Sequence record: NC_049394.1
Length of the DNA: 30,927 nucleotides
Direction: 5' to 3' (one strand)
Source of the DNA: Escherichia phage ESSI2_ev129
Numbering within the stretch: position 1 is the first letter of the stretch; every line of letters begins with the position of its first letter. Of the stretch, positions 1,936 to 5,328 are shown one piece after another. Below the pieces are notes generated by a model. That model did no database searches. It worked only from the letters and a program-made list of their open reading frames with translations, and was not told the DNA's origin. Made by a program: the position numbers and the translations under genes.

Positions 1936-2480
1936 TAACCCAAAGCATCATTGACGGGCTTCAGCACTTTGCGTTCAAACCACGTCAGTTTTTCTTCATC
2001 TTCTCCGGCAGACTGGCCACCGGACTGTCCCACACTACCGGCAGTCTGTTTTTTTGCGGTCGTCTTACCTGTTGCCCTGGCCTCTCGCTTTTCCTGCACG
2101 CTGATATGTTCCGCCAGTGTGAATGTCACCAGCCAGGCCATTTTCCCGTCCTGCTGGGGTGCATCCAGCATTCCGCTGAACGTTGCTTCACGAAAATTAA
2201 CAGCACGGGCAACTTCATGCGCCACGCGGTACTTCTGACGATTACCACTGGCATCGGTAGCACTGGCCAGCTCAAAAATACGCTTCAGTATTTCAGGCTG
2301 TTTAAAAGGTATTTCACCGCTGATCCGCAGTTCCTTTCCCTTTGCTCCCTGCTCTGATTTTGTTGTGGCACTGGTCTGGCCGGACTGATCTTTATCCTGA
2401 AATTGCTGTGAAACAGTCACCCGCATGTTTTTCAGTTGGATGGTTTCGCCATTAAGCGCCAGTGTCGGGATCGAAGTCAT
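1935..2480 (-). CDS. Hypothetical tail-module protein (possibly gpU-like), function unassigned
   Basis: 181-aa ORF, ATG at 2478-2480 preceded by AAAGGGAA Shine-Dalgarno; overlaps the upstream gene by 29 nt and the downstream start by 1 nt. No motif recognised. Confidence 0.45.
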   Translation of the reverse strand: MTSIPTLALNGETIQLKNMRVTVSQQFQDKDQSGQTSATTKSEQGAKGKELRISGEIPFKQPEILKRIFELASATDASGNRQKYRVAHEVARAVNFREATFSGMLDAPQQDGKMAWLVTFTLAEHISVQEKREARATGKTTAKKQTAGSVGQSGGQSAGEDEEKLTWFERKVLKPVNDALG

Positions 2481-3177
2481 GAATCATTCCCTTTATTCCA
2501 TCAAGATTATCGCCAACCAGCATCATGGCAGCTGTGTAAACGGCAGACTGCTGCGGAATGTCCTTCACCAGTTCCAGTAACGTGGTACCGGTGTCTCCGC
2601 TGGCAGTAAAAACCCACGCTCTGGCACTCTTCCCCTGTAAATCATTCAGGCCGCTGGCCACATCACTGATAAGCTGGTCACGTAGCTGCGTGAACTCGCC
2701 CAGCTGTTTTTTCAGCCCTTCGATATCAAACCCGGCACCCGCCGCCTTTTGTGCATGGCTGATTGCCGCAGCAGATAAAGCTGCCCTGCTGGTTGGTACA
2801 GACAGCGGAATGGACGCAGGTAACGCAGCGGCGGTTTTCGCAGGGATCTGCATCTTTTCAATAGCCAACGCTGCGGCGGATTGCGCCAGCCGTTTGACCT
2901 GCATGAATGCCGGGGCGGGGAAAATCCCGACCAGGTTATTCAGGCTGGCCATAAAGTTTTCCTGCGTCTGTCCGGTGACCATCATAATCACCACATCCGC
3001 ATTCCCCCCTGTTCCGGCCAGGCGTTCAGCAAGATAGCGAACGGCATTAACCGGGCTGAGATATGCCCCGTTCGCTGTCTGCTGTCCCAGCCCATAAATC
3101 CACGGATGCGCAGGGACGATCGAACAGTTCAGCGCAGCAACTGAATCCGTGAAGGCCAGACGTGCTTCACGCCACAT
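2452..3177 (-). CDS. Hypothetical protein downstream of the tail fibre assembly gene (structural or accessory, unassigned)
   Basis: Track ORF is 2452..3213; start refined to ATG 3175-3177 (MWREARL...), preceded by GGAGGTG with 7-nt spacing and 5 nt after the Tfa stop. 241 aa, Ala/Gly-rich, contains ASGDTGTTLLEL. No confident family match. Confidence 0.45.
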   Translation of the reverse strand: MWREARLAFTDSVAALNCSIVPAHPWIYGLGQQTANGAYLSPVNAVRYLAERLAGTGGNADVVIMMVTGQTQENFMASLNNLVGIFPAPAFMQVKRLAQSAAALAIEKMQIPAKTAAALPASIPLSVPTSRAALSAAAISHAQKAAGAGFDIEGLKKQLGEFTQLRDQLISDVASGLNDLQGKSARAWVFTASGDTGTTLLELVKDIPQQSAVYTAAMMLVGDNLDGIKGMIHDFDPDTGA

Positions 3178-3754
3178 TTCCAGGCACCTCCGGCCACACA
3201 ATTTCTGCCGCATCTTCCGGTTGAATACGATTCAGTAAAACGCGGTATTTTTTCCATGCGGTAAGCAGCAGTGCTTCTTCTTCGGTTGCCATGTCTAAAT
3301 CAACGGCATCCTGCAATGTGGCAATGGCGTCATTGGCCTGTTTAAGCAGGCTTTTCTTTTCGGCGTCTGCCTCGCTGACTAATGCAATTCGCATGGCCTC
3401 CGCATCATCCACCCACGCCTTACCATTCCATTTTTGCAAGGCATTAGCCGGTGCTGACGTGGTTGTCCCTTCCGGGTAAGCGCCTGGCTCGGTGATCACC
3501 AGTTCATTACCGTTTTCTGTATCAAACACCACCTCACCACGGTGATCCTCACGGGAAATCCATCTTTGCTTCTCTGAATCAAAAATCGCCACAAACCCCG
3601 CTTTGATTGCCGGTGGCTTTATCGTGGTGCAGTTAGCTGGCAGTCCGGTATGCGCAGGAATAAAAGCATCACCCGAACCAATAAATTCATTCGTATCGGA
3701 ACGCAGGTTATAAACAGTAACTGTTTGATCGGTTTCACTCATTTTAAAAGTCAT
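3167..3754 (-). CDS. Tail fibre assembly protein (Tfa / P2 gpG-like chaperone)
   Basis: 195 aa immediately downstream of the tail fibre with ATGA start/stop overlap at 3754; acidic C-terminal region (..LLLTAWKKYRVLLNRIQPEDAAEIVWPEVP) typical of the Tfa family. Confidence 0.75.
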   Translation of the reverse strand: MTFKMSETDQTVTVYNLRSDTNEFIGSGDAFIPAHTGLPANCTTIKPPAIKAGFVAIFDSEKQRWISREDHRGEVVFDTENGNELVITEPGAYPEGTTTSAPANALQKWNGKAWVDDAEAMRIALVSEADAEKKSLLKQANDAIATLQDAVDLDMATEEEALLLTAWKKYRVLLNRIQPEDAAEIVWPEVPGNVA

Positions 3755-5328
3755 TATGCGAGTCTCACTATGTAGTTAAATGCAATATTCTTAACGGTCG
3801 TTTCTGCGTTGCCCGACGCGGCGACGGTAATGGTGTGACTGTGTGCGCCAATGGCTACGGTATGAGAGTGAGCGCCAATACCTACGGTGTGATTATGTGC
3901 GCCAATGGCTACGGTGTGCGCGTGGTTTCCCGCCGAACTGGTTGCGGCTCGCCCCTGATCGCTACGTGGTACCCCCCAGTCACTACCACCTGATTGCACA
4001 TTCCCGCCATAACCAATGGTGTGCGTATGCGCTCCCGTGGTATTTGTCGTTTTCGTGCCATAGTCAAACGTAGTCGCCGTTTTAGTGCCGTAATCAAAGG
4101 ATGATGTTGGTTTTGTCCCCAAATCCGTACTGGATGCACTGGCGGTGTGGGCATGGGATTTATTGCCATCATCTTCATAGGAGAGAACTGCGCGACCGTC
4201 TGGTTTCCCTTTGATAGTCTGCCCACGCGCATCAGGAATTACGCCCGATGGATACGCGATTGCCAGTAAAGGATATGCAGCCTTATCAAAAGATTGTCCC
4301 TGCATAATTGCCCACCCTGCCGGTGGGATATCTGTTGACCACGGAAGCGGCACACCAACCGGCAGAACATCACTACGACTTAAAACGGCCAGTTCACCCA
4401 GATCCAGGCTTTTTCTTGCTTTTACCTTGTCGTTAACATCAGCAAGGTTTGCATCCTTACGCAAAAAATCACTGCTGGCCTGCTGTTCTCCCAGGCTACC
4501 TTTTGGCCGTAAATCCGTGATGTTGCCATCCACATCAATGCTGGCCACAGCAAACACATAATGCTGAACCCCGTTCTGAACATAATCAGCAAGATTTGCA
4601 GTCACCGTGATTTTGCTCTGCACATTCCAGACACTGGTCAATGTCCCTGTCCAGCACACATCCAGCCAGACTTTTACCGGCTTTGTCGTCACCGTAATAT
4701 TCTGATTCGCAGCCAGTGACGCACGCAATCCAGCCACATAACCCGTGCCTTTCGTGACAAAAAACTGATTGCCAGTTTTGGCTACCAGATAGCCGTTACC
4801 AAAAAACGCCGCCGCACCATAGATATCCATATTTTCCAGGCGCTGGCGCTCATCCATTCCGGCCATACGCGCAGTAAAATCAATCTGCCAGGTTTCAGCG
4901 GGTGTATTAATCCCGGTTTCCGTCTGTGCGCCGTTGTACTCCATCAGAAACGAGCGGGTCAGCACGTTCCCCTGTTGCCCTTCTTTTGTTTTCAGTTTCT
5001 GCTGTGATGGTGCATGGACAATCATTGCCAGCGTACCGCTGGCCTTATTGAGCAGACCGATCCAGTTAAAACTGAAATCACCCACATCTGCGCCCAGCAC
5101 TACGGAATAGACCACCCCGTTTTCATTCACCACACCGGTGCGGGTAACAGCCTGCCGGTGAACAATCTGTGCTGTCGGTGGCAACGCTTCATTGCGGTCA
5201 ACAGGTGTATCCGGGTTTAAATCCGGCACACTGGCAAAAACAAATTCGTCCAGTAGTACCGGTTCACCCGTTGCGCCCTGCTGTGCTTTCCAGTTTTCAA
5301 ACGCCAGCGTGATGGCTGTCTGTGACAT
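3754..5328 (-). CDS. Tail fibre protein with tail-collar domain and C-terminal His-x-His repeat tip
   Basis: 524 aa. Strong Shine-Dalgarno AAGGAGG upstream of ATG 5326-5328. Collar-like segment [33 protein letters not shown]-terminal repeats FDYGTKT x2 and (H-x-H-T-V/I) x5 (..[34 protein letters not shown]..), encoded by three 27-bp DNA repeats at 3841-3921. Confidence 0.8.

Follow-up and report, generated by a model that had tools for sequence, protein, structure and literature searches.

What do the histidine repeats at the end of this tail fibre do? They crowd the C-terminal region of a fibre gene in the window analysed here, the whole 30,927-nucleotide stretch of Escherichia phage ESSI2_ev129 (NC_049394.1), and a first-pass annotation took them for the receptor-contacting tip, with a repeat number that might vary and a sequence that might be exchanged with a second histidine-rich gene in the same window. 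The gene product, we conclude, is very probably the receptor-binding tail fibre, with a T4 gp37-type tip, of a temperate phage of the P2-like kind (Peduoviridae, Evevirus-like); in this tip the repeats would form the stem of a needle and a short variable loop would meet the receptor.

The fibre gene and its repeats

The features discussed are listed below by window position; the needle parts are named after the T4 alignment described in the next section.

3167..3754 (-), tail fibre assembly chaperone gene (Tfa/gp38-type), 195 aa, directly following the fibre gene
3754..5328 (-), tail fibre gene, 524 aa and a stop codon, from the ORF list
3757..3807 (-), C-terminal return strand, aa 508-524 (17 residues), predicted to rejoin the collar
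3808..3930 (-), needle stem, ascending arm, aa 467-507, aligned to T4 960-1009
3832..3918 (no strand given), 27-bp tandem array, 3.2 copies with 78% matches by Tandem Repeats Finder, within the ascending arm
3931..4014 (-), head/tip loop, aa 439-466 (28 residues), aligned to T4 tip subdomain 932-959
4015..4158 (-), needle stem, descending arm, aa 391-438, aligned to T4 882-931
4159..4368 (-), collar domain, aa 321-390, Pfam Collar PF07484 (E 4.7e-10), equivalent to T4 gp37 D10
4855..5322 (-), N-terminal baseplate-attachment domain, aa 3-158, Pfam PF12571 (E 2.5e-32)
14296..14532 (-), HxH mini-gene, 78 aa with nine HxH; 45-bp array of 4.1 copies at 14321-14505, 98% identity

The fibre ORF matches the Pfam families Phage_tail_fib, Collar and Phage_fiber and falls into PHROG tail fibre families, with phrog_8239 spanning aa 1-291. 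It is syntenic with the tail fibre gene of Escherichia phage ESSI2_ev239 (Peduoviridae, Evevirus), to which it is 95.6% identical in nucleotides. Upstream lie Baseplate_J and Tail_P2_I genes, giving the order baseplate J, gpI-like, fibre, Tfa. The chaperone ORF is recognized by Pfam Caudo_TAP (E 2e-33) and by phrog_105, tail fiber assembly. Its identity to T4 gp38 is only 26% (E 1e-19).

The protein appears to be a mosaic of two parts, a lineage-specific attachment and shaft portion (aa 1 to ~320) and a tip of the T4 gp37 / Ur-lambda Stf type (aa 321-524). The N-terminal attachment part is peculiar to the P2-like lineage, and its identity in ev239 and in a prophage of E. coli 1919D3 is ∼98–99%. 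The tip begins with the collar, matched by PF07484 at aa 325-372 with 39.7 bits against a cut-off of 24, and the needle follows. The composition profile across the gene shows no distinct step in GC where the two parts join.

Six HxH motifs are present, at aa 392 (SHAHTA), 434 (AHTHTI), 469 (NHAHTV), 478 (AHNHTV), 487 (AHSHTV) and 496 (AHSHTI), and aa 381-524 hold 12 of the 15 histidines of the whole protein. In 100,000 protein shuffles the mean number of HxH was 0.40 and the maximum five, so that none had six. The descending arm consists of four 10-residue stretches followed by GAHTHT, and contains HxH no. 1, three 10-aa D(L/Y)GTK units and HxH no. 2. The ascending arm reads GNHAHTVAI, GAHNHTVGI, GAHSHTVAI, GAHSHTITV and AASGN, with HxH nos. 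3–6.

The motifs named in the first-pass annotation are thus largely where it put them. FDYGTKT does occur twice (FDYGTK at aa 411 and 421, window 4078-4098 and 4048-4068), as part of the D(L/Y)GTK units. The count of five HxHT(V/I) units is right, but leaves out the sixth HxH at aa 392. The derivation of all five from the 27-bp array holds for the four tandem 9-aa units (aa 467-502, DNA 3823-3930) and fails for the unit at aa 434, which is on the other arm, 35 aa further upstream.

Homology to the T4 gp37 needle

PDB entry 2XGF is the crystallised receptor-binding tip of phage T4 gp37. A phmmer search of PDB sequences places fibre aa 321-524 on 2XGF residues 28-242 (E 1.5e-69), with the collar starting at chain residue 28, and BLASTP finds 131 of 217 positions identical (60%, E 1e-77). 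Because the crystallised tip is matched at 60% identity and the gene is accompanied by a Tfa/gp38-type chaperone gene, the link to the T4 iron-binding needle, first drawn from the motif, is one of direct homology and goes beyond motif resemblance.

The likeness runs over ∼204 aa: collar, needle, head and return strand come in the same order, the HxH motifs stand at homologous positions, and a chaperone gene of the gp38/Tfa type follows the fibre gene. Of the six HxH, five are aligned opposite the T4 iron-binding residues H883, H966, H980, H989 and H998, and HxH no. 2 stands opposite H929/H931, which are essential in T4. Two HxH are on the descending arm and four on the ascending arm. T4 has seven, the difference being the H915 site, missing here, where the H915/H917 unit of T4 gives way to the third D(L/Y)GTK unit. 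T4 also has, after the first HxH of its ascending arm, a 5-aa insertion that is missing from the ev129 fibre, whose four ascending units therefore all repeat in strict tandem every 9 aa. The sequences of the head loops are unrelated, and the tip is carried by a 320-aa P2-like N-terminal part rather than by the 784-aa distal half-fibre of T4.

The T4 needle holds seven irons, is inserted into the collar and bears the tip subdomain 932-959 (PMC6957217), at which small head the chain turns back to return to the collar (PMC6957217, PMC12609058); since the chain doubles back, the needle has six strands (PMC12609058). T4 residues 1010-1026 are part of D10 (PMC6957217), and the last 13 residues of the ev129 fibre are the same as those of T4 gp37. 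This T4-identical C-terminus, together with the hypervariable loop described below, agrees with a chain that reverses at a variable head and brings its C-terminus back to the collar. The idea that the HxH repeats and the C-terminus are the part touching the receptor must accordingly be given up, as the HxH repeats correspond to the stem.

If the fibre folds as its T4 homologue does in the crystal, three chains would make up a collar, followed by an antiparallel needle of six strands. Every chain would run down through aa 391-438, form a small receptor-contacting head at aa 439-466, run up through aa 467-507 and end in the collar. Each HxH motif would aim two histidines at the threefold axis, and two histidines from each of three chains make six ligands for one metal ion, which in T4 is Fe2+. 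Six HxH per chain predict six collinear metal sites, against seven in T4, and the metal could be one other than iron. From the repeat sequences we deduce that the 10-aa D(L/Y)GTK units probably sit beside the 9-aa GxHxHTVxI ascending units, one per layer, and such a pairing implies that the two kinds of repeat change number together.

An AF2 monomer model of aa 321-524, built from a 56-sequence alignment, is of low confidence (pLDDT 56.5, pTM 0.21) and was used for strand positions only. These positions, themselves of low confidence, fit one long antiparallel hairpin (i+j ∼259 in domain numbering), and the T4 domain boundaries give an equal register.

Folding of the fibre would depend on the Tfa/gp38-type chaperone encoded next to it. 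In phage Mu, Tfa is said to remain bound to the fibre tip, and the ev129 Tfa may contribute to receptor binding.

Variation in the head loop, the arms and the mini-gene

Aligned across 56 homologues, the head loop is the sole hypervariable segment, with a mean pairwise identity of 0.20 as against 0.67–0.89 for the other segments; the C-terminal return strand reaches 0.89, and the HxH histidines and surrounding glycines are invariant. The ev129 loop is common only to ev239 and a few E. coli prophages, and in the otherwise ∼98% identical E. coli 1919D3 fibre it has been replaced wholesale. On this pattern aa 439-466 are predicted to be the receptor-contacting part, and host specificity would come mainly from this loop. 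The conserved HxH-coding stems that flank it could act as recombination anchors.

The lengths of the two arms are coupled. We sorted 233 parsed homologues into needle classes by descending and ascending span, and in 231 of them an extra 9-aa ascending HxH unit is matched by an extra 10-aa descending unit; in the remaining two, at least one HxH motif has been lost. None of the 233 has an ascending-arm change without a matching descending-arm change. The classes form a simple series, (32,18), (42,27), (52,36), (62,45) and (72,54), and a T4-type series, (46,32) and (55-56,41). Needles across the family carry five to nine HxH, most commonly six, as in ev129. Between the orthologous fibres P0016 and P0118, whose head loops are identical, the sole differences are an indel of 20 aa in the descending arm and one of 18 aa in the ascending arm. 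Repeat number therefore does vary, as had been proposed, but at the level of the family; a change in the 27-bp array alone is never seen. The expected variation among close relatives did not appear either: in ∼33 of them (E. coli genomes and phage records) copy number is constant and the genes are all 1575–1578 bp, and the one compared in detail differs by its replaced head loop.

These observations bear on a reading in which the 27-bp array is a slippage-prone contingency locus, gaining and losing HxH units to resize the tip and shift host range. The tandem array is genuine, and its units 1 and 3 have a 20-nt exact run in common (3842-3861 and 3896-3915, 54 bp apart). The family-wide range in HxH number, and the P0016 and P0118 pair, two units apart on each arm behind the same head loop, can be counted in its favour as well. 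We nevertheless think it improbable. The fibre units are old and diverged, 74–87% identical to one another, whereas those of the mini-gene array are 98% identical and its product comes in variants of 32–82 aa, as would be expected of a contingency locus. Length differences of a multiple of 27 bp are absent among the ∼33 close relatives, and divergence at this range is located in the head loop. A single slippage event, moreover, would lengthen or shorten one arm only; with no unmatched arm change among 233 homologues, the resulting unbalanced needle is presumably non-functional. That the histidine-rich region is instead a flexible low-complexity linker or generic metal-scavenging tract, with neither a defined fold nor a receptor role, is hardly credible. 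Its composition (G, A, H, T, V) is indeed of low complexity and the monomer model is poor there, but low monomer confidence is expected of an intertwined trimer. The region is 60% identical to a needle that is ordered in the crystal, its HxH histidines and nearby glycines do not vary among the 56 homologues, and strict 9-aa and 10-aa periods with coupled arms are the signature of a folded repeat.

The remaining alternative, that the fibre repeats and the mini-gene exchange DNA by gene conversion or recombination, one locus serving as sequence reservoir for the other, concerns the mini-gene itself. Its existence and its protein motif are as first described. The mini-protein matches Pfam PF03335 (Phage_fiber) with 29.8 bits against a cut-off of 20, in five stretches, and a 33-aa relative scores 20.4 bits; PGAP labels the long versions 'phage tail protein', the fibre matches PF03335 too, and the two arrays are the only tandem repeats that Tandem Repeats Finder reports in the window. 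Exchange between them is all the same very unlikely. The best DNA match between the loci is 20 of 25 nt (E ∼9 against the window), a level reached by chance matches elsewhere; the choice of synonymous codons is consistently different (GGT GCA CAT in the mini-gene, GGC GCN CAC in the fibre); the units are of 7 and 8 aa in the one and 9 aa in the other; and the mini-gene is entirely missing from prophages whose fibre is 95% identical.

Having no collar, head or attachment domain, the mini-protein is not a tail fibre, and its PF03335 match denotes motif membership only. The mini-gene is an independent, optional cargo gene between the gpM and gpL head genes, outside the fibre. Its copy number is variable among relatives, the DNA at its ends hardly differs among all 10 variants, and ev239 has an unrelated 63-aa gene in the same slot. 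A word-index homologue search with the mini-protein returned one relative only, of 47 aa, and no family for it was found in NCBIfam or PHROGs. A single-sequence model (pLDDT 60.6) gave nothing at E < 0.5 in a Foldseek search of the PDB, where the top rows were generic beta-solenoids and not informative. A promoter and terminator scan around the gene gave nothing above shuffle expectation.

Relation to known fibres and significance

Phage P2 reportedly has a gpH/gpG-type module of fibre and chaperone, and fibre tips are said to have been exchanged horizontally among unrelated phages. The ev129 module resembles it in the order of baseplate J, gpI-like, fibre and Tfa genes and in having a mosaic fibre whose tip is common to unrelated phages; its N-terminal domain, of the PF12571 type, may set it apart from P2 gpH.

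The tip belongs to a family that is already published, the T4/lambda-type receptor-binding proteins of Magaziner & Salmond 2022, found in >200 phages and homologous to T4 gp37 only in the last ∼215 aa (PMC9659904). The ev129 fibre is a further member. Its counterparts, among them Ur-lambda Stf and Citrobacter PhiNP ORF6, of which the latter has been shown by experiment to be the receptor-binding protein (PMC9659904), are alike in limiting the homology to that stretch and in diverging mainly within the specificity region. Members occur widely among the temperate phages that infect E. coli, Salmonella, Citrobacter and Klebsiella; the ev129 copy differs in being mounted on an Evevirus-type P2-like fibre. 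The LPS Glc-II receptor is a feature of PhiNP. The long and short tail fibre tips of the Felixounavirus Bas63 likewise have a collar, a six-stranded di-histidine needle and a head (PMC12609058), with partial similarity of ∼40–50% over domain aa 82-190. The authors of that work, comparing three fibres, already suggested that HxH number scales with needle length (PMC12609058); the matched two-arm rule rests here on 233 sequences.

One broader idea, which we offer tentatively and consider rather unlikely, is that the HxH unit is a portable, self-assembling metal-zipper module whose copy number evolves in two ways, through paired indels in the fibre needle and as a stand-alone mini-protein. If so, host range could also evolve through the length of the needle, a second parameter that would not depend on the head loop and would change only by matched indels (+10 aa on the descending arm, +9 aa on the ascending), often by two layers together, possibly so as to get at receptors that lie beneath shallower or deeper surface layers. 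The module would also have been released as a rapidly expanding mini-protein of 32–82 aa in the gpM-gpL cargo slot, which could exist free as a metal-bound trimer of beta-structure and have a separate function.

Current understanding of T4-type needle fibres is unchanged by these results. For annotation, the ev129 fibre can be confidently labelled a T4 gp37/Stf-type receptor-binding protein, with its putative host-range determinant narrowed to ∼28 residues, aa 439-466. Where fibres are to be engineered, the matched-arm rule is a concrete constraint: head loops should be swappable between the conserved HxH stems, and the needle should be resized only by a paired 10-aa descending and 9-aa ascending unit.

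The fibre and its needle

The genes considered here are:
3167..3754, minus strand: Tfa, a Caudo_TAP tail fibre assembly (chaperone) gene
3754..5328, minus strand: the tail fibre gene, encoding a 524-aa protein
14296..14532, minus strand: the HxH mini-gene, encoding 78 aa

Upstream of the fibre gene lie Baseplate_J and a P2 gpI-like gene; downstream of it lies the Caudo_TAP gene (Pfam), whose product is homologous to T4 gp38 (26% identity, E 1e-19). A 253-aa ORF (2452-3213, minus strand) starts inside the 3′ end of Tfa, with ∼47 bp overlap; in phage ESSI2_ev239 its counterparts, which follow the fibre module, carry no annotation beyond ‘hypothetical’. Within the fibre protein, Pfam assigns aa 3-158 to Phage_tail_fib (the N-terminal domain, E 2.5e-32) and aa 325-372 to Collar, and a single Phage_fiber repeat falls on the first HxH.

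Residues 321-524 match the T4 gp37 receptor-binding tip (crystal structure 2XGF) with E 1.5e-69 and 60% identity (131/217), the final 13 residues being the same. The T4 needle (D11, residues 882-1009) is an insert within the collar (D10, 811-881 and 1010-1026) and comprises a stem (882-931 and 960-1009) and a tip subdomain (932-959); seven iron atoms lie along its length, and H929/H931 are essential (PMC6957217). The chain reverses at the head, forming a six-stranded antiparallel needle (PMC12609058, PMC9659904). Transferring the T4 boundaries onto the window protein makes the HxH repeats builders of the stem; by analogy with T4, the distal part that contacts the receptor is not the C-terminus but the loop joining HxH no. 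2 to no. 3. The likeness to the gp37 tip proposed in the first-pass annotation is borne out as homology, but its placing of the contacting tip in the C-terminal HxH array is not.

Segments of the window fibre, from transferred T4 domain boundaries, with mean pairwise identity in an alignment of 56 sequences
Collar: aa 321-390; 0.74
Descending arm: aa 391-438; 0.68
Head loop: aa 439-466; 0.20
Ascending arm: aa 467-507; 0.67
Return strand: aa 508-524; 0.89

The fibre has six HxH motifs (aa 392, 434, 469, 478, 487 and 496); five read HxHT(V/I), the number first reported, and the sixth is additional. In 100,000 shuffles of the protein the mean was 0.40 HxH, and six was never reached. The 27-bp array said to encode all five (TRF: 3832-3918, 3.2 copies, 78% matches; unit-to-unit identity 74-87%) codes only for the four tandem units of aa 467-502 and does not include the HxHT at aa 434. 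The FDYGTK duplication is confirmed, with copies at aa 411 and 421. T4 gp37 has seven needle HxH (883, 915, 929, 966, 980, 989 and 998), and in place of its 915 unit, GGHTHSGSGS, the window fibre has a third D(L/Y)GTK unit. From its six HxH we predict six metal sites per trimer.

The HxH mini-gene and its insertion slot

Besides the fibre array, the only tandem repeat found by TRF in the whole window is at 14321-14505 (45-bp x 4.1, 98% identity), in the mini-gene. The mini-protein, with nine HxH and 19 His, is almost all HxH units, (HTHTVGA HSHSLGGA) x 4. It matches Pfam PF03335 in five stretches (29.8 bits, cut-off 20), and no PHROG or NCBIfam family matches it; a Foldseek search of the PDB with its single-sequence structure model (pLDDT 60.6) yielded no hit below E 0.5. 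The exact protein occurs in one NCBI chromosome (CP057617.1), so the window is most probably a P2-like prophage from an enterobacterial genome. HxH versions have 32, 33, 47, 53, 61, 68, 78 or 82 aa, varying in copy number between invariant ends, MKESHLQG and HTHTFNTE. Its proposed link to the fibre holds as a common protein motif (PF03335) but is not supported as sequence exchange: the best DNA match is 20/25 nt (E ∼9), comparable to chance matches elsewhere, and codon choice in the mini-gene is unlike that in the fibre. RefSeq/PGAP labels longer HxH mini-proteins ‘phage tail protein’ (NZ_CP063503.1 and NZ_OZ547246.1; loci L003 and L005), a name that evidently stems from nothing but the repeat motif and that probably misleads, as the gene is located among head genes and carries no fibre domain.

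The mini-gene is a clean cassette, directly after the stop codon of gpM (terminase small subunit) and before gpL (head completion), with its ribosome-binding site within the final gpM codons. This slot is empty in many Escherichia coli prophages, some with a 95% identical fibre, and in ev239, ev015 and ev040 it is occupied by an unrelated gene of 63-65 aa, to which the label ‘L33’ is given (phrog_8618). In these P2-like prophages it is a cargo slot with three states, empty, HxH mini-gene or 63-65-aa gene (window 14290-14540; loci L001, L002-L007 and L019 of relatives), with a precise insertion boundary immediately past the gpM stop codon. The ∼95-bp non-coding stretch from slot to gpL start (∼14200-14295) is conserved in all relatives, ev239 included despite its different flanking cargo (alignment A3).

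Matched lengths of the two arms

The descending arm has a 10-aa period, four such units being followed by GAHTHT; the ascending arm has a 9-aa period (GNHAHTVAI, GAHNHTVGI, GAHSHTVAI, GAHSHTITV). FDYGTK units and HxH units are partners. We parsed 233 homologues, drawn from the best 120 of 1171 matches (90% clusters) and the best 150 representatives listed of 1636 (50% identity, E up to 0.001), taking for each arm the span from first to last HxH. Spans fell into discrete classes, with one 10-aa descending unit added per added 9-aa ascending HxH unit and 5 to 9 HxH in total per needle.

Span classes (descending,ascending) among 233 homologues
Simple series
(32,18): n=42
(42,27), class of the window fibre: n=116
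(52,36): n=14
(62,45): n=2
(72,54): n=2
T4-type series
(46,32): n=46
(44,30): n=1
(55-56,41): n=8
One or more HxH motifs lost: n=2

The orthologous fibres P0016 and P0118, from syntenic contigs, have identical head loops; their sole differences are indels of 20 aa in the descending arm and 18 aa in the ascending arm. In this example descending units 2/4 and 3/5 share 87% and 80% DNA identity, the mark of an old two-unit duplication. These prophage fibres, with nine and seven HxH, lie on Logan contigs (L016:732-1796 and L018:1501-2451) in like contexts: Phage_Wedge1, fibre, Caudo_TAP, acyltransferase.

T4 domain boundaries give an antiparallel register of i + j ∼899, which would put D-unit 3 next to ascending HxH no. 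4, D-unit 2 next to no. 5 and D-unit 1 next to no. 6; strand positions in a low-confidence AF2 monomer model agree (i + j ∼259, domain numbering). Such layers of paired D-units and ascending HxH would explain why a change in a single arm was never seen among the parsed homologues.

Head loop replacement and the fibre family

The fibre gene has 95.6% DNA identity to that of ev239 (Peduoviridae, Evevirus) and to prophages of ∼27 complete E. coli genomes. The window, ev239 and E. coli 1919D3 prophage fibres are ∼98% identical except in the 1919D3 loop, aa 438-466, which is wholly different. Repeat-number variation had been suggested to alter host range. Array units 1 and 3 have a 20-nt exact run in common, making a 54-bp deletion mechanistically possible, and this would leave the arms unbalanced. 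Comparison across ∼33 close relatives gave no 27-bp length difference, every gene being 1575-1578 bp. Given the loop swap and the lack of 27-bp length differences, host-range change in this lineage appears to proceed by head-loop replacement, not repeat slippage.

The HxH iron sites of gp37 were reportedly established by Bartual in 2010. The window fibre belongs to an already known family: this tip is established as widespread in enterobacterial phages, T-even and lambdoid ones among them (584 phage records by tblastn; PMC9659904), and scaling of HxH number with needle length has already been raised (PMC12609058). To this we add, modestly, a strict matched-arm rule across 233 sequences, a naturally occurring pair of fibres with matched indels of two layers and an unchanged head, and delineation of the head loop as a swapped cassette.
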